Origin: a virus
Taxonomy: Duplodnaviria; Heunggongvirae; Uroviricota; Caudoviricetes
Reading direction: 5' to 3' (one strand)
DNA length: 8,178 nucleotides
IMG/VR virus record: IMGVR_UViG_2778261085_000010
Below are positions 1,046-8,178 of this stretch, piece after piece. A program made the translations under genes and the position numbers. The first letter of the stretch is position 1, and every line of letters starts with the position of its first letter. The notes under the pieces are model-generated. The model made no database searches. It had not been told where the DNA came from and saw only the letters and a list, made by a program, of their open reading frames with translations.

Positions 1046-1855
1046 TCACTTAATTATTGGATAACTCACACAAGTATGACCGTTGCTTATCGCATACATT
1101 TGGTTTCCCTTAAGATTTACAAATGGAAATGTCGTATACTCATAATTTATAGAGGTCATGTTAAATGTAAGGAATTTATCTTCAAGTTCTAATTTTGTAG
1201 AGTGGGCAGGGTATGTTCCTTCATTTTTCATTGTGATAATAAAACCGATAGGGAAAAAATGTAAAGCACAAATAAATGCCACATGTCCTTCGTTCATAAA
1301 TGCTACACTTTGAGCGGATATGTGCATTCTGTGTGGGTAAAACCAGTAGTAAATATCATGAGTTTCCTCAAAACTTGAATTTTTACCCAAAACATAATCC
1401 TTTAAAGGTGTATAGAAGGGGCTATCTACGGGTTCTTTTTTACAATCTTCAACTGAAGTTGCTGATAGCACGTGCCCAATCATAGCCTTAGTGAAAGATA
1501 TGCTATCAAAAGGTATTCTAATGAATGGATATACATTCATACCATTCATATATCGACTTAACTGTTCTTTAAAGGACTTTGTTACATTTTCAATTGCAAC
1601 ATCGAGCCCACCTAATACCTTATTGTTACAGTGGCTGCAAATGGTTCTGAAATAAGAGCCATTTTTAGCATTTAATGGTTTAACTGGTTCCTGAATACCA
1701 AAAAATTCGCTAACTGTTTTCTGCAAAACAGGGCCTAAGGTTATGGCGCACTTTGGAGGAACATGATCTTTTGTGAGCAAGCCATATTTCCCACAAATAT
1801 TGCAATAACCTTCAGTAATGCCATTGTGCTTCCATCGTTCACTAATTTTCGTCAT
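1046..1855 (-). CDS. HNH nuclease-domain protein with uncharacterised ~190-aa C-terminal domain (269 aa); AT-rich cargo gene
   Basis: Uninterrupted 810-nt ORF on the minus strand. Start ATG at 1853-1855 is preceded on the mRNA by GAGGGA plus a 7-nt spacer. The N-terminus carries a zinc-finger HNH pattern (CNICGKYGLLTKDHVPPKC ... NGSYFRTICSHCNNK). GC content is visibly lower than the flanking prophage genes and the gene is opposite in orientation to them. Confidence 0.7.
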   Translation of the reverse strand: MTKISERWKHNGITEGYCNICGKYGLLTKDHVPPKCAITLGPVLQKTVSEFFGIQEPVKPLNAKNGSYFRTICSHCNNKVLGGLDVAIENVTKSFKEQLSRYMNGMNVYPFIRIPFDSISFTKAMIGHVLSATSVEDCKKEPVDSPFYTPLKDYVLGKNSSFEETHDIYYWFYPHRMHISAQSVAFMNEGHVAFICALHFFPIGFIITMKNEGTYPAHSTKLELEDKFLTFNMTSINYEYTTFPFVNLKGNQMYAISNGHTCVSYPIIK

Positions 1856-2802: not shown

Positions 2803-3081
2803 ATGGCGCACGATACCAAATTACACAATTCTGATAATTCAGCCGTCTTTGCCAGCAGGCACGGGCGGCGCTCTCACGCATTTAAATCTGATTGGTACCA
2901 GCATCCCCCATGTACTGAAGAACAAGCTGAATGGCTAATTCAGTGCTACCGCAGACACGGATACGAGATTAAGAAAGCCCTCAGCCTCGATTATCGTCAC
3001 TGGATAATCTCCGTCAGGCTTCCTTACTCCGAACGCCCACCGCGTCCGTCACGCACATTCCAGCAACGGATCTGGAGGTAA
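2803..3081 (+). CDS. rem: Rem-like small prophage protein (92 aa from ATG 2803)
   Basis: Listed ORF 2674..3081 starts with a GTG inside the hokD terminator, so the internal ATG at 2803 (weak GAGA RBS) is the more plausible start. Position between hokD and the DUF968 gene matches the K-12 Qin order hokD-rem-ydfU. Symbol assigned by synteny and recollection, not by alignment. Confidence 0.45.
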   Translation: MAHDTKLHNSDNSAVFASRHGRRSHAFKSDWYQHPPCTEEQAEWLIQCYRRHGYEIKKALSLDYRHWIISVRLPYSERPPRPSRTFQQRIWR

Positions 3082-3082
3082 C

Positions 3083-4138
3083 GTGCGGGTATTACTTCGA
3101 CCTGTTCCGGTACCGGAACTTGGGCTGGTGGTGCTAAAGCCGGGCCGTGAATCCATGCAGGTATTTCATAACCCTCGAGTGCTGGTGGAGCCGGAACCGA
3201 AAAGCATGCGCGGTCTGCCATCCGGGATTGTTCCTGCCGTTCGCCAGCCACAGATGGAAGATAAATCATTACTGCCATTTTTCAGCGACGAACGGGTGAT
3301 TCGTGCTGCTGGCGGCGCAGGCGCATTGTCTGACTGGCTCCTGCGTCATATTAAATCCTGCCAGTGGCCTCATGGTGACTACCATCACAGTGAAACCGTC
3401 ATTCACCGTTACGGTACCGGCGCAATGGTGTTGTGCTGGCACTGCGACAACCAGCTGCGTGATCAGACATCGGAATCACTCGGGCTACTTGCTCAACAAA
3501 ATCTGACAGCCTGGATGATTGACGTCATACGTCACGCAATAAGCGGTACACAGGAACGGGAATTATCGCTGGCTGAATTATCCTGGTGGGCGGTCCGCAA
3601 TCAGGTGGCGGACGCGCTACCGGAAGCGGTATTACGTCGTTCGCTGGGGTTGCGTGCGGAAAAAATCCGCCCAATGTACCGTGAAAGCGACATCGTGCCG
3701 GGAGAGCAGACCGCCACCAGCATACTGAAGCAGCGCACAAAAAATCTTGCACCGCTGCCTCACGCCCACCAGCAAAACCCGCCACAGGAAAAGACGGTGG
3801 TAAGCATTGCCGTTGATCCGGAGTCACCGGCTCAGTATCTCCAGCGCCAGAAACCACAACGGGAAGAGATGCCTGTATACACGCGCTGGGTAAAAACGCA
3901 GAAATGCATGACGTGCGGTAATCAGGCAGATGATCCGCATCACATCATTGGTCATGGACTGGGAGGGATGGGAACAAAGGCTGATGATTTGTTTGTTATT
4001 CCGCTGTGCCGTAAATGTCATAACGAACTGCACGCCGGGGTAAAAGATTTTGAAGAAAAACACGGCAGCCAGCTGTTGTTGCTGATTCGTTTTTTAATGC
4101 ACGCGAGAAATTCGGGTGTCCTGAAGTGGAAAGCATGA
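3083..4138 (+). CDS. ydfU: DUF968-family prophage protein (YdfU-like, 351 aa) with C-terminal HNH-like zinc motif
   Basis: GTG start at 3083, 4 nt after GGAGG (3074-3078) and 1 nt after the upstream stop. C-terminus reads CMTCGNQADDPHHIIGHGLGG...IPLCRKCHNELH. Length and synteny match K-12 YdfU (~349 aa) next to the Q gene. Confidence 0.75.
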   Translation: MRVLLRPVPVPELGLVVLKPGRESMQVFHNPRVLVEPEPKSMRGLPSGIVPAVRQPQMEDKSLLPFFSDERVIRAAGGAGALSDWLLRHIKSCQWPHGDYHHSETVIHRYGTGAMVLCWHCDNQLRDQTSESLGLLAQQNLTAWMIDVIRHAISGTQERELSLAELSWWAVRNQVADALPEAVLRRSLGLRAEKIRPMYRESDIVPGEQTATSILKQRTKNLAPLPHAHQQNPPQEKTVVSIAVDPESPAQYLQRQKPQREEMPVYTRWVKTQKCMTCGNQADDPHHIIGHGLGGMGTKADDLFVIPLCRKCHNELHAGVKDFEEKHGSQLLLLIRFLMHARNSGVLKWKA

Positions 4139-4516
4139 ATGACTGAACGCATAGAATTTGTTTTGCCTTACCCGCCGACGGTGAACACCTACTGGCGACG
4201 CCGTGGCTGCACATATTTTATATCGGAAGCCGGTAAGCGTTATCGCCGCGATGTGGCGCTTATCGTTCGCCAGCAGAGGCTGAAATTAAATCTGTCCGGA
4301 AGGCTGGCGATAACGGTTATCGCAGAGCCGCCGGATAAGCGCCGTCGTGATCTGGACAATATCCTGAAAGCGCCACTGGATGCGCTGACACATGCGGGGC
4401 TGCTTATCGACGACGAGCAGTTTGATGAAATTAATATTGTGCGCGGTCAGCCTGTTCTTGGTGGGCGACTGGGTGTGAAGATTTTCATAATCAGAGGTGG
4501 TAACGATGGCGCGTGA
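4139..4516 (+). CDS. rusA: RusA-family Holliday junction resolvase (125 aa)
   Basis: ATG at 4139 abuts the upstream TGA (ATGAATGA junction). Conserved RusA catalytic region PDKRRRDLDN...KAPLDALTHAGLLIDDEQ compares well with E. coli RusA (PDRRRRDLDN...KAAFDALTKAGFWLDDAQ) as recalled. Confidence 0.75.
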   Translation: MTERIEFVLPYPPTVNTYWRRRGCTYFISEAGKRYRRDVALIVRQQRLKLNLSGRLAITVIAEPPDKRRRDLDNILKAPLDALTHAGLLIDDEQFDEINIVRGQPVLGGRLGVKIFIIRGGNDGA

Positions 4517-4871
4517 CATTCCATTTGTTCTTGAACGATGGGGGGCATGGGCTGCGAGTGATAGCTCAGGAGTTGATTATTCCCCAATTGCTGCTGGATT
4601 TAAGGGGCTTTTACCGTGTACCAGTAAAATACGACAGGCATGCAGTGATGCGGATGGATTAATCATAGATGGCTGCCTAGCTCTTCTTAAGAAGAAAAAA
4701 CCATATGAGCACTCTCTGATTGTGGCTCATTACTTGTATGGTATATCGAAGCGGAAGATCGCAAAGGCACGTAAAAAAGATGAGAAACTAATACGTATTG
4801 AGATTAAGATGGCTGAAGGGTTTGTTGAAGGCTGTCTCTCAATGAGGGGTGTTAAACTTGAAATGGATTAG
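4506..4871 (+). CDS. Late-gene antitermination protein Q (121 aa)
   Basis: ATG 4506 with GAGGTGG RBS, overlapping the rusA 3' end by 11 nt. Motif LERWGAWAA...IAAGFKGLLP...LEMD is characteristic of the Q antiterminator family of lambdoid prophages (quuD/quuQ type). The listed start at 4497 is a GTG 9 nt earlier. Confidence 0.8.
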   Translation: MARDIPFVLERWGAWAASDSSGVDYSPIAAGFKGLLPCTSKIRQACSDADGLIIDGCLALLKKKKPYEHSLIVAHYLYGISKRKIAKARKKDEKLIRIEIKMAEGFVEGCLSMRGVKLEMD

Positions 4872-4876
4872 TGGAG

Positions 4877-4894
4877 CCCCGGTTTAAGCCGGGG
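4877..4894 (+). other. GC-rich hairpin immediately 3' of Q (weak terminator or Q-region RNA structure)
   Basis: CCCCGG-tttaag-CCGGGG, a 6-bp all-GC stem 6 nt after the Q stop, followed by ATGTTTCTG (only a short U-tract). Confidence 0.3.
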
Positions 4895-5352
4895 ATGTTT
4901 CTGAGCGAAGAGATGTTTGTTTGTGAAGCTATTATATAGTTAATTAGGAAAACATGTGTTTTCGATAGCTGTACAGGTGACTTTTTTCATCAATTTCAAC
5001 ATGGCGTGAGAAGCAGATTTTTTGCGTACCAGATGTTTTATTTGGTTTTAGATTTCAGATTATTTCGAACAACGACAAAATGCCATTGTTCGTAGAGTTC
5101 ACAGATAGAGCCACACCAGCATGAGCTTCAGGAGACAAGGTTACCCGTCGCAGTAGGGGATTTTTAAAGTGCTTATAACGGTGTTGATGTGGACTTTCAG
5201 TGTTCTGGCAGTAACAACAGTAGAAGTGAGCATTGTGGTTCATATCCAGTAAGTGTGATGCACACTCAAAATATATCTAATGGGATTAATGTTTTCTTAA
5301 TGTAAACCATGTAAAATTTCAGGGAGAGTTCAATACTTGTTCATAATTTATT

Positions 5353-6369
5353 ATGTGTAGTATCAATAAACTTAGTGTTATTGTCCCGTTATATAATGCG
5401 GGCGATTATTTCTGCACCTGTATGGAATCTTTAATCACGCAAACGTGGACTGATCTGGAAATTATCATTATTAATGATGGTTCGACAGATAATTCTGTTG
5501 AGATAGCAAAGTATTACGCGGAAAACTATCCGCACGTTCGTTTGCTGCATCAGGCTAATGCTGGCGCATCGGTAGCGCGTAATCGTGGGATCGAGGCGGC
5601 GACGGGCAAATATGTCGCTTTTGTCGATGCTGATGATGAGGTCTATCCCACCATGTACGAAACGCTGATGACCATGGTGTTAGAGGATGACCTCGACGTG
5701 GCGCAGTGCAACGCTGACTGGTGTTTTCGTGAAACGGGAGAAACCTGGCAATCCATCCCCACCGATCGCCTTCGCTCAACCGGCGTATTAACTGGCCCGG
5801 ACTGGCTGCGGATGGGACTTTCTTCCCGCCGTTGGACTCACGTTGTCTGGATGGGCGTTTATCGTCGCGACGCTATTGTAAAGAATAATATTAAATTTAT
5901 TGCCGGATTACATCATCAGGATATTGTCTGGACAACTGAGTTTATGTTTAACGCGCAGCGTGCGCGATATACCGAGCAATCGTTATATAAATATTATCTG
6001 CATAATACGTCAGTGAGTCGGTTGAACAGACAAGGGAATAAAAACCTTAATTATCAACGTCACTATATTAAGATCACCCGCCTGCTGGAGAAATTAAATC
6101 GAAATTATGCCGACAAAATTACGATTTATCCTGAATTTCATCAGCAAATAACTTACGAAGCATTGCGTGTTTGCCATGCGGTACGCAAAGAGCCGGATAT
6201 TCTTACCCGCCAACGGATGATTGCCGAGATATTTGCTTCCGGTATGTATAAGCGTATGATTACGAATGTGCGCAGTATAAAGGTTGGTTATCAGGCGTTA
6301 CTGTGGTCTTTTCGCTTATGGAAATGGCGAAACAAAACACAGGTTATGCGTCCAATTGATTGGATATGA
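5353..6369 (+). CDS. Family 2 glycosyltransferase (GT2), soluble type (338 aa)
   Basis: N-terminal GT-A fold signatures: [53 protein letters not shown] (DxD). No C-terminal transmembrane pair of the GtrB kind is apparent. No obvious RBS upstream of ATG 5353. Confidence 0.8.
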
Positions 6370-6989
6370 TTTATATTTCTCATTTATCAAGATAATCATC
6401 CAGATGATCTTATTTGGTATTTTGCGCGACTTTTCAAATATCATAGGTTACAAAAAAGTTGTTGAATTGCTGTCTATCAACATGCGTTTGCTAACGAGAA
6501 AAGAATTTGTTGGTGTATTTTTTGAGAGGATAAAATACAACCGCTTTATGCCGATATGTTTCATAACAAAAGCGAAATCCGTATTAGCAGCAATCAAGAC
6601 GAACACACCAACGGGCTTCTCATGAGTAAGGATGGTCATATTCATACTGAGCTTAATGTTGACGGCTTTTGGCTTGTATTATTCGTAGTGTACAGCTCAA
6701 GTTGTCCAAGAGGAGCGAGAGTACCATGTCTGGCTTCTGTATGGAGTGTAACAATTAGTTAAGGGTAAGATAACTCTGTCAACCATTTCATATGGGAACT
6801 ATATAAATGCTTACGCGGTCCGCAAAAACAATTGTAACATGTTAAGAGTTATTACTTCGACTTCTTTCATACCCCCACCTCCGGGCTGTTTTTTGTGCCA
6901 AAGGGGAGGACGTTGAATGTGCTGGTTGGTGTGAATATGATGGTTTATTGCTAATTGCTTACTTCCCTGATGCGTGTGAAGTATTGGGT

Positions 6990-7514
6990 ATGACATCGAA
7001 ACAGATAGCGGAAGCCACCGGAAAGAAAAACATGGCTTCGCACTGGTTTGGTACCAGCCAGTGGCAGTTACCGAATGAGGCCGATTACAGTAAACTGCAG
7101 GTGCTGTTTGCACGTGTGGCGGCAGAAAAACATCAGCGCGGTGAACTGGAGCAGCCACACCATCAGCTGGTCAGCACATACAGCGAACTGAACCGGCAAT
7201 ATGTCAGCCTGCTGGAGGAATACAAATCACTGCGGCGTTATTTTTCCGTATCAGCTGCCGTTCCTTATACGGATGTCTGGACGCACAAGCCTGTGCAGTA
7301 TTATCCGGGTAAGCATCCCTGTGAAAAAACGGCGGATATGTTGCGTCAGATAATTACTGCCAGCAGCCGTCCTGGCGATTTGGTCGCAGATTTTTTTATG
7401 GGGTCGGGGTCGACAATAAAAGCGGCACTGTCGCTGGGACGCATGGCGATTGGCGTGGAACTGGAAGAGGAGCGTTTTAATCAGACGGTCAGAGAAATAA
7501 CGAAAGATTTTTAA
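6990..7514 (+). CDS. DNA methyltransferase C-terminal fragment (beta-class N6A/N4C type, AdoMet-binding half) fused to an unrelated HTH/coiled-coil N-terminus; probably truncated and inactive
   Basis: C-terminal ~85 aa (DVWTHKPVQYYPGKHPCEKTADMLRQIITASSRPGDLVADFFMGSGSTIKAALSLGRMAIGVE) matches the HPxxKP...FxGSGT motif-I region of beta-class methyltransferases such as YhdJ/CcrM. No DPPY catalytic motif is present anywhere in the frame, which is open only back to 6846. The listed start at 6948 is a TTG; ATG 6990 (MTSKQIAEATGKK...) is more plausible. Confidence 0.55.
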   Translation: MTSKQIAEATGKKNMASHWFGTSQWQLPNEADYSKLQVLFARVAAEKHQRGELEQPHHQLVSTYSELNRQYVSLLEEYKSLRRYFSVSAAVPYTDVWTHKPVQYYPGKHPCEKTADMLRQIITASSRPGDLVADFFMGSGSTIKAALSLGRMAIGVELEEERFNQTVREITKDF

Positions 7515-7616: not shown

Positions 7617-8064
7617 TCTTCCAGGTATGCAGGGTTTTATCTTTTATGTTAGCTGGTGGTTGCTGGTAACCTGAAATGGTTATGCTTGCTTACATAGTAA
7701 TCCGCGTAATTACGTAATGCAGCATGCCATACAGGTATCGTATAATGGCGATTACATAAGCCTACCAGGTTGATGATGCAGGTTAGATTCCTGCTACCTG
7801 CTACCTGCCCATGGTTGTTTATGCCAAGACTATGTCAGGCACTGACATTATATTATGTGGGGTGTTTTTTATGGTTACTTGCGCACCCTGTTCTGTAATG
7901 AGTGATATTCGTTGCGGTTCCAGTGCCATTTTTTTTACAACATCGGAATGGTGCATTATTAGCAAATATTTTTTCTGCTTCAGGCATTATTCCGATGTTG
8001 TAAACATCGACAAAACAAAACCCAGATTAGTCACATACTAAGTCAAGCCCGGACATCATTCCTT

Positions 8065-8089: not shown

Positions 8090-8104
8090 ATTGTGCACAG
8101 AAAA

Positions 8105-8123
8105 CCCCCAGCTAGGCTGGGGG
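8105..8123 (-). terminator. Candidate terminator for a minus-strand gene entering from beyond the window end
   Basis: CCCCCAGC-tag-GCTGGGGG 8-bp stem; on the minus strand it is followed by TTTTCTGTG (short U-tract). Confidence 0.4.
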
Positions 8124-8178
8124 TTCCGGAAAGCTTTCAGCTTTGAGCCAGTTATTAAAACCCCTTTTGATTTGTTAA

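Follow-up and report, generated by a model that had tools for sequence, protein, structure and literature searches.

The open reading frame at positions 6846–7514 of the window, by which we mean the whole 8,178-nucleotide stretch of viral DNA analysed here, is very probably a 5'-truncated pseudogene. Its intact counterpart encodes an orphan beta-class adenine methyltransferase, carried by E. coli lambdoid prophages between Q and the lysis cassette. The first-pass annotation had proposed that a deletion fused the 3' half of a phage methyltransferase gene to another gene, leaving a likely inactive remnant. On alignment with intact homologues, the gene is truncated and not chimeric. The expectation of inactivity held up: the half of the enzyme containing the DPPY motif has been deleted, residues 1–161 are absent, and the relic is almost certainly inactive as a methyltransferase. 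What is left over is the helix-turn-helix recognition domain, a charged linker, and the last ~90 residues (the motif I region). Note that this is an ordinary decaying pseudogene of a well-known family, and not a new kind of protein; as such, it is already known.

The reading frame encodes the C-terminal part of a methyltransferase

The frame is open from position 6846, right after a TAA codon at 6843–6845, to a second TAA at 7512–7514. Within it, the only start codons are TTG at 6948 and ATG at 6990. Position 6846, where the described frame opens, is not a gene start; no start codon occurs before the TTG at 6948, and homology to methyltransferases begins at 6950/6951. The AdoMet-binding region of a beta-class methyltransferase had been noticed in this frame, and profile searches agree that it encodes the C-terminal part of an N6/N4 enzyme. 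Pfam family PF01555 (N6_N4_Mtase) matches with an E-value of 4.5e-23, across profile positions 122–219 of 221, which is the C-terminal part only. Similarly, the match to PADLOC profile MTase_II PDLC03265 is restricted to positions 181–329 of 333, and PHROG methyltransferase profiles also matched in the C-terminal part only.

The two sequence motifs originally described in this region fared differently. The FxGSGST motif is present, as FFMGSGST, at 7392–7415 (forward strand). This is motif I (FxGxG), the AdoMet-binding loop; it is intact, follows strand 131–135 of the structural model described below, and occupies columns that are invariant, or nearly so, across an alignment of 55 relatives (55–95% identical). 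The HPxxKP motif, supposed to be intact, is degenerate. At 7314–7331 (forward strand) the window encodes HPCEKT, where intact relatives in the alignment have HPCEKP; P288 and E286 of the latter are each invariant (55/55 relatives).

In beta-class enzymes of this arrangement, motif IV is followed by the recognition domain and then by motif I. The window ORF does not have this order over a complete Rossmann-type catalytic domain. As had been noticed, the DPPY motif is missing; a scan for [DNS]PP[YFWH] in six frames of the entire window found none. The motif could conceivably have been recovered by correcting a frameshift. It was not: besides the empty six-frame scan, a tblastn search of the window with the N-terminal 165 residues of an intact homologue (residues 1–165) gave no match. 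Without its catalytic motif, the product is predicted to lack sequence-independent N6-adenine methylation activity.

In NCBI draft genomes, the ORF is called as 174 amino acids, from the ATG at 6990 to 7514 (forward strand), and the product is named 'site-specific DNA-methyltransferase [Escherichia coli]'. Only this ATG form has been called; a 188-amino acid product, started at the TTG, is not on record. The ATG results from an ATA-to-ATG change specific to the relic (I175M), in a column occupied by I or V in all 55 relatives. No convincing Shine-Dalgarno sequence precedes this ATG, which thus has a poor context for initiation. In a search for a promoter belonging to the relic itself, the sole consensus match was at 6913–6941, where 9 of 12 positions agree, which is chance level.

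The helix-turn-helix segment belongs to the native enzyme

An intact version of the gene is found in E. coli C5 (L001). It is 1047 nucleotides long and encodes 348 amino acids, with TDPPYF at residues 33–38. The relic, at 6951–7514 (forward strand), corresponds to residues 162–348 of this prophage enzyme, stop codon included, as judged by BLASTP, tblastn, and DNA homology. The BLASTP alignment with the enzyme encoded at L001:3519-4562 is gapless, with 178 of 187 residues identical (95%). When the full-length protein was compared to the window, using tblastn, the matches were confined to 6951–7511. Homology to the intact gene, at the DNA level, begins at 6950. Residues 1–161, including TDPPYF, are therefore absent from the window, and TDPPYF is found in the intact copy only.

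The same boundary is apparent among complete genomes. In a megablast search of 5426 complete E. coli genomes, every match begins at window position 6950, inside genes annotated 'DNA-methyltransferase'. Intact copies are the norm: a match to the intact gene at 80% coverage or more is present in 1877 of the 5426 genomes, and many E. coli genomes have matches to it in one to five places. The joint present in the window was in none of the 5426 complete genomes searched.

The N-terminal part of the ORF had been described as a helix-turn-helix-like segment and a coiled-coil-like stretch, contributed by a different gene. Both features are there. However, they match residues 176–260 of the intact enzyme, inside the gapless alignment, and so come from the native enzyme, with no foreign gene fused on. 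TSKQIAEATGKK (6993–7028, forward strand), the helix-turn-helix portion of the enzyme's own recognition domain, is identical in the intact protein. A chimera with a foreign helix-turn-helix gene was rejected on the basis of the gapless alignment, and of the fit to the published domain map of M.EcoGII. Hence, of the proposed sequence of events, the deletion stands, with residues 1–161 gone, and the fusion does not. Upstream of the native segment are only non-homologous codons without a start codon: the 34 codons at 6846–6947 match no methyltransferase, and positions 6798–6937 are homologous to the region upstream of an NYN-domain gene in a related prophage (L010).

Differences from intact copies are unusually dense at the boundary. 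Of the 48 nucleotides right after the joint, 11 differ from the closest intact copy, compared to 14 of 513 in the next stretch. Among complete E. coli genomes, the best match to positions 6950–7010 is no more than 82%. The excess of differences 3' of the joint might stem from a parental allele that has not been sampled, from repair errors made at the joint, or from selection in favour of the new start codon.

A deletion of approximately 0.9 kb accounts for the joint

Comparison with the prophage locus of E. coli TUM1881 (L010) places the deletion joint at 6938–6950, where sequence from upstream of the NYN gene meets approximately codon 161 of the methyltransferase. In TUM1881 the order is Q, an NYN-domain gene on the opposite strand, a 65-amino acid ORF, a 349-amino acid methyltransferase, and tRNAs. 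Window positions 4511–4926, spanning Q and the sequence just after, correspond to L010 2462–2877. Further along, 6450–6688 (inside the NYN gene) corresponds to 3001–3237, 6798–6937 (upstream of the NYN gene) to 3881–4028, and 6950–7500 (the 3' part of the methyltransferase) to 4932–5482. Relative to L010, approximately 903 bp are missing at the joint, consisting of the 65-amino acid ORF and the first 482 nucleotides of the methyltransferase. On each side of the joint, the sequence matches a neighbouring part of the ancestral locus, as expected of a genuine deletion.

The remainder of the NYN gene is a pseudogene fragment at 6523–6755 (reverse strand), detected by DNA matches and by tblastn of the L010 NYN protein. 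Its internal part, at 6523–6714, contains in-frame stops. Amino acids 147–209 of that protein are matched at 53% identity, with stops. Amino acids 42–63 match weakly (E-value 0.10), as does the 3' end of the gene, at 4887–4922 (12 amino acids, E-value 0.89). The NYN fragment marks the ancestral order as Q, NYN, small ORF, methyltransferase.

Synteny of Q, methyltransferase, and holin is shared by the E. coli C5 and TUM1881 loci and by phages SfV and LLS. In the two phages, the order is Q, a terminator, a small ORF, a 350-amino acid methyltransferase, and holin. In phage 933W, no methyltransferase gene lies in the interval from Q to the tRNAs, so this phage was of no use for the comparison. The ancestral module comprised Q, the NYN gene (on the opposite strand), the 65-amino acid ORF, a methyltransferase gene of ~349 codons, tRNA, and holin. 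A deletion of ~0.9 kb took the 65-amino acid ORF and methyltransferase codons 1 to ~161. In doing so, it removed the DPPY motif, the N-terminal Rossmann strands, and the dimer interface. The insertion of an IS1 relic and a waaH-like gene into the NYN gene was a separate event.

The truncated allele is shared by independent assemblies

Among NCBI draft assemblies of E. coli, 14 contigs encode the exact 174-amino acid protein, and seven more encode close variants. The joint at residue ~161 marks a lineage of its own, of at least 21 contigs. The 31-nucleotide joint sequence is exactly conserved in eight loci (L002–L009). Moreover, the 715 nucleotides across the joint (6800–7514) have equal length, and at most three differences, in all 15 truncated loci compared (L002–L009 and L011–L017). 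These loci are from independent draft E. coli assemblies, some within contigs of 31–413 kb, and their early regions vary, being DnaB/Ash-type, YdaT-type, or ParDE-containing.

Such data bear on the trivial explanation that the organism itself has an intact gene, and that the truncation is an artefact of sequencing, assembly, or frameshift. The window does come from a short draft contig, and the exact waaH-like protein encoded alongside the relic is on record from contigs of no more than 8193 bp. We nevertheless regard the probability of this explanation as negligible. The stretch across the joint is alike in the 15 loci, including those inside the contigs of 31–413 kb, N-terminal homology occurs in no frame of the window, and the flanks of the joint match neighbouring parts of the ancestral locus. 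An assembly artefact was rejected for the first of these reasons.

Other decayed copies of the same methyltransferase occupy the corresponding interval from Q to the lysis genes, which is prone to acquiring morons. Their breakpoints are elsewhere. In Erwinia amylovora (L101), a 194-amino acid C-terminal half, with homology starting at residue 130, is encoded 3' of Q and behind opposite-strand genes. In E. coli, variants of the methyltransferase with internal deletions are also found (P0024, P0066, and P0080). The differing breakpoints indicate independent truncation events. Note that matches in protein databases are mostly contig-end fragments; for instance, P0010 (194 amino acids) is cut by the end of its contig. 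Cluster lengths are therefore unusable for counting true truncations. The reading as an inactive remnant could have been called into question by an active full-length family with exactly the architecture of the window ORF. The half-size ORFs found (phrog_6952 and the Erwinia copy) look instead like independent truncations.

In the PHROGs collection, the two halves of this enzyme form distinct families, phrog_6025 (N-terminal, 192 positions) and phrog_6952 (C-terminal, 181 positions). Taken at face value, the two families would suit a split enzyme, in which another gene of the genome supplies the DPPY half, and an active methyltransferase forms when the two parts come together. For the relic, this seems extremely unlikely. 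The two profiles overlap on residues 170–204 of the intact protein and so are not complementary halves of one split gene. No N-terminal half was found in the 8.2-kb window, or in the flanks, of up to 10 kb, of relic-bearing loci. In addition, the adjacent small ORF was lost at the breakpoint too, a pattern typical of simple deletions, and the mutation of invariant residues, described next, argues against continued function.

Conserved residues have been replaced in the relic

At conserved columns, the relic has residues seen in 0 of the 55 relatives: R167P, R170C, I175M, P288T, and R326M. Variation among the 15 truncated loci amounts to three polymorphic sites in 561 coding nucleotides. One (7265) is synonymous. 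The remaining two are non-synonymous, and each alters HPCEKP: E286D is found in one sublineage and P288T in the sublineage of the window. Sister truncated alleles P0123 and P0124 have HPCDKP. Judging from these alleles, two HPCEKP changes after truncation are what relaxed constraint predicts. Pairwise dN/dS is 0.18 for the relic and its closest intact copy, and 0.07 for two intact copies. The difference leans in the direction of relaxed constraint, but rests on too few changes, most of them probably older than the deletion; the conserved columns and the polymorphisms of the truncated alleles were more informative.

There are counter-points. The relic has kept an open frame through all 187 homologous codons, and a dN/dS of 0.18 is not near 1; most of that divergence may be older than the truncation. 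The relic-specific change that made an ATG start could be read as selection for expression. With three polymorphic sites in 15 loci, the relic is conserved, though recent common ancestry is the more likely cause. Finally, a recurrent half-size form exists, in the shape of the PHROGs C-terminal halves of ~181 amino acids.

Relationship to M.EcoGII and to enzymes of known structure

M.EcoGII is a prophage-borne, beta-class enzyme of 349 amino acids that methylates adenine non-specifically; DPPY lies in its N-terminal part and FxGxG in its C-terminal part, with the recognition domain between them (PMC5778455). Murray et al. 2018 called the phage 1720a-02 enzyme very similar to M.EcoGII (PMC5778455), and the intact E. 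coli C5 relative of the relic is 86% identical to that phage methyltransferase. Sequence identity thus gives a strong, but indirect, case that the relic belongs to the M.EcoGI/M.EcoGII family, with the phage 1720a-02 enzyme as the link.

In the published model of M.EcoGII, the Rossmann domain is formed by residues 1–134 and 260–349, and there is a charged two-helix linker (PMC11551740). The recognition domain, residues 160–237, is a four-helix bundle with a helix-turn-helix, and the dimer interface involves residues 97–110 and 116–140 (PMC11551740). On this map, the relic starts almost exactly at the N-terminal edge of the recognition domain. Like M.EcoGII, it keeps the helix-turn-helix recognition domain, the charged linker, and the C-terminal FxGxG region. 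It also shares the position in lambdoid prophages of the M.EcoGI/M.EcoGII type, 3' of Q and before the lysis genes. Unlike M.EcoGII, it is without residues 1–161, and hence without DPPY, the N-terminal part of the Rossmann domain, and the dimer interface. It also has HPCEKT instead of the HPCEKP of the family. With residues 1–161 missing and HPCEKT in place, the relic is not expected to be an active M.EcoGI/M.EcoGII member.

The 174-amino acid ORF was modelled with AlphaFold2, using a 51-sequence alignment (mean pLDDT 83, pTM 0.53). The model has recognition-domain and linker helices, an unstructured segment at 82–114, and then a helix-strand-helix-strand-helix arrangement. Helices are at relic residues 3–10, 16–19, and 30–49, and those of the recognition domain are modelled with fair confidence. 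Of the Rossmann core, two beta-strands and ~60 residues are left. A Rossmann fragment with two sheet strands is unlikely to make a stable AdoMet pocket. On the strength of the model, such a pocket is unlikely in the relic.

Foldseek comparison of the model with the PDB gave matches at probability 1.00 and rmsd of 1–3 Å, over ~60 columns only. The last ~60 residues of the relic superpose on the motif I–III region of M.BceJIV (8urk/9c3s), M.RsrI (1eg2), M1.MboII (1g60), CcrM (6pbd), and M1.HpyAVI (5hfj). The relic covers approximately one quarter of each solved beta-class enzyme, with target-normalised TM-scores of 0.2–0.3. By comparison, the intact relative matches solved beta-class structures in two blocks, one N-terminal and one C-terminal; the N-terminal block, residues 8–114, is absent from the window.

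These comparisons allow a different view of the 174-amino acid product to be weighed, namely that it is a functional stand-alone factor, binding nucleic acid or AdoMet, that might alter or block the activity of intact M.EcoGII-type enzymes encoded by other prophages in the cell. An open frame with a relic-specific ATG (I175M), and recognition-domain helices that are modelled with fair confidence, are compatible with this. The intact gene also has matches at one to five places in many E. coli genomes. Moreover, beta-class enzymes act as dimers, and are reported to require dimerisation (PMC7544214), and phrog_6952 is a family of C-terminal halves. We consider such a factor quite unlikely. The dimer interface (97–110 and 116–140; PMC11551740) has been deleted, and a start at M175 cuts 15 residues from the N-terminal end of the recognition domain (160–237). 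The conserved Arg167 and Arg170 have been replaced, and the invariant HPxEKP has been struck independently in two sublineages. Two Rossmann strands are left, in a model with pTM 0.53; there is no convincing Shine-Dalgarno sequence before 6990, and the promoter-like sequence at 6913–6941 is at chance level. Other half-size copies break elsewhere, at residue 130 in Erwinia or at contig ends. For similar reasons, namely two strands and ~60 Rossmann residues, loss of dimer interface 97–140, and HPxEKP residues mutated in two sublineages, the AdoMet-binding regulatory protein offered as an alternative in the first-pass annotation is unlikely. In its most elaborate form, the idea would have the relic translated at induction from the ATG at 6990. 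The product would then bind nucleic acid or AdoMet, and damp toxic non-specific methylation by co-resident M.EcoGII-type enzymes, or regulate otherwise. The phrog_6952 halves would be exapted, not debris. We regard this as very unlikely.

Expected consequences of truncation

A truncated pseudogene, as favoured here, leads to simple expectations. From the published and inferred picture, the intact enzyme is silent in the lysogen and expressed on prophage induction; its place directly 3' of Q fits the late operon. Its context-independent adenine methylation would protect progeny DNA from many restriction enzymes. The relic would be unable to methylate DNA. Late transcription under the control of Q probably still runs through it, with the relic as no more than a passenger. 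Any translation would start at the weak ATG made by mutation (I175M), and should yield a non-functional fragment. Since the intact non-specific enzyme is reported to be harmful to the cell when expressed constitutively (PMC5778455), its loss may be neutral or mildly favourable for a resident prophage; the loss that we describe fits this reported harm.

In practical terms, this ORF, which draft genomes list under the name 'site-specific DNA-methyltransferase', needs to be marked as a 5'-truncated pseudogene. Surveys of methylomes or restriction-modification systems should leave it out of their tally of active methyltransferases.

Gene turnover between Q and the lysis genes

The relic is downstream of the antiterminator Q gene, at 4497–4871 (forward strand; Pfam PF06530, E-value 1.7e-48), in the late-operon leader region. 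An insert at 5073–6369 (forward strand) splits the NYN gene. It consists of an IS1-family relic, at ~5073–5217, and a waaH-like glycosyltransferase gene at 5353–6369. On the 3' side of the methyltransferase relic is a tRNA gene, at 7731–7802 (forward strand), identified by ARAGORN and by Rfam (tRNA, 41 bits). It is conserved with intact loci, where tRNA-Gly is annotated at the equivalent place in both E. coli C5 and TUM1881. Further downstream, related loci (L011 and L014) have intact-looking holin, endolysin, and terminase genes.

The whole interval from Q to the tRNA is marked by the insertion of cargo and the decay of genes. It provides a small, clean example of turnover between Q and the lysis genes in lambdoid prophages. 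The IS1 relic and waaH-like gene have come in as cargo (moron), and resident genes have decayed, namely NYN, the small ORF, and the methyltransferase in its front half. In the search for a donor of the waaH-like gene, no species representative was above 95% amino-acid identity. This cargo gene is arguably of greater interest than the relic that it adjoins.

A cargo gene between the antiterminator gene and the methyltransferase relic

The interval between Q, the antiterminator gene, and the 5'-truncated methyltransferase relic is occupied by cargo: a waaH-like gene, encoding a family-2 glycosyltransferase. The segment spans positions 5268-6369 (+ strand) and includes, in addition to the gene, some 85 nt of the DNA that natively precedes it. 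Note that the product of chromosomal waaH is the UDP-glucuronate:LPS(HepIII) transferase. Essentially every complete E. coli genome has a chromosomal waaH that shares 92% DNA identity with the window copy. At the protein level, identity to chromosomal WaaH is 94% over 330 residues, with the final 8 residues differing. No second waaH copy was found in complete E. coli genomes, and amino-acid identity to species representatives did not exceed 95%. We did not find a prophage-borne waaH described in the literature.

Between Q and the waaH-like gene, there is an IS1-family relic (about 135-145 nt, approximately 5073-5217) that is 77-78% identical to IS1 transposase genes and may be a trace of the route by which the waaH segment arrived. 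The combined IS1/waaH insert splits an NYN-domain pseudogene, from which an internal piece is also gone. Fragments of this gene, which contains in-frame stops, are found at 6523-6755 (- strand) and 6798-6937, and the 3' end of the NYN gene is weakly matched at 4887-4922. Related prophages, such as that of E. coli TUM1881, have an intact NYN-domain gene.

Substitutions at the deletion joint and decay of other methyltransferase copies

Substitutions are clustered directly 3' of the deletion joint, at positions 6951-6998, where the relic departs from the closest intact methyltransferase copy at 11 of 48 nt, compared with 14 of 513 nt in the next stretch. A search of 5426 complete E. coli genomes gave a best match of 82% for this cluster. 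Within it, a change from ATA to ATG is the source of the only ATG start in the relic.

Other methyltransferase copies have also decayed. In an Erwinia amylovora locus (L101), a 5'-truncated copy at 2914-3585 encodes a 194-aa ORF, with homology beginning at residue 130 of the intact enzyme. Upstream of this copy lie Q and three genes on the opposite strand, and hicAB comes after it. The truncation is independent of that in the window. Loss of the 5' part of the methyltransferase gene, at the spot downstream of Q, recurs across genera. In E. coli, internally deleted variants also occur (proteins P0024, P0066, and P0080), and PHROGs places the N-terminal and C-terminal halves in separate families (phrog_6025 and phrog_6952). 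We conclude that either decay, or mis-split annotation, of the methyltransferase gene is common.

Additional features of the window

In the early region, positions 1046-1855 (- strand) contain a low-GC ORF (about 35%) of 268-269 aa. The predicted protein is Cys-rich, with CxxC-type motifs, and matches phrog_21495, a family of unknown function, from end to end. There was no match in Pfam, NCBIfam, or PADLOC. This ORF may be cargo or have a role in defence. Positions 2311-2635 contain a hok/sok-type toxin-antitoxin pair, comprising a sok RNA (111 bits) and a Hok/Gef ORF (2423-2635). At the other extreme, a match to the Hfq-binding sRNA STnc490 (8103-8178) is incomplete, being cut by the window end. 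Finally, ARAGORN identifies a tRNA gene at 7731-7802 (+ strand) as tRNA-Gly with anticodon ACC, an unusual glycine anticodon for bacteria. The gene has a modest Rfam tRNA score (41 bits) and a weak anticodon stem; at loci with intact methyltransferases, the same gene is annotated as tRNA-Gly.
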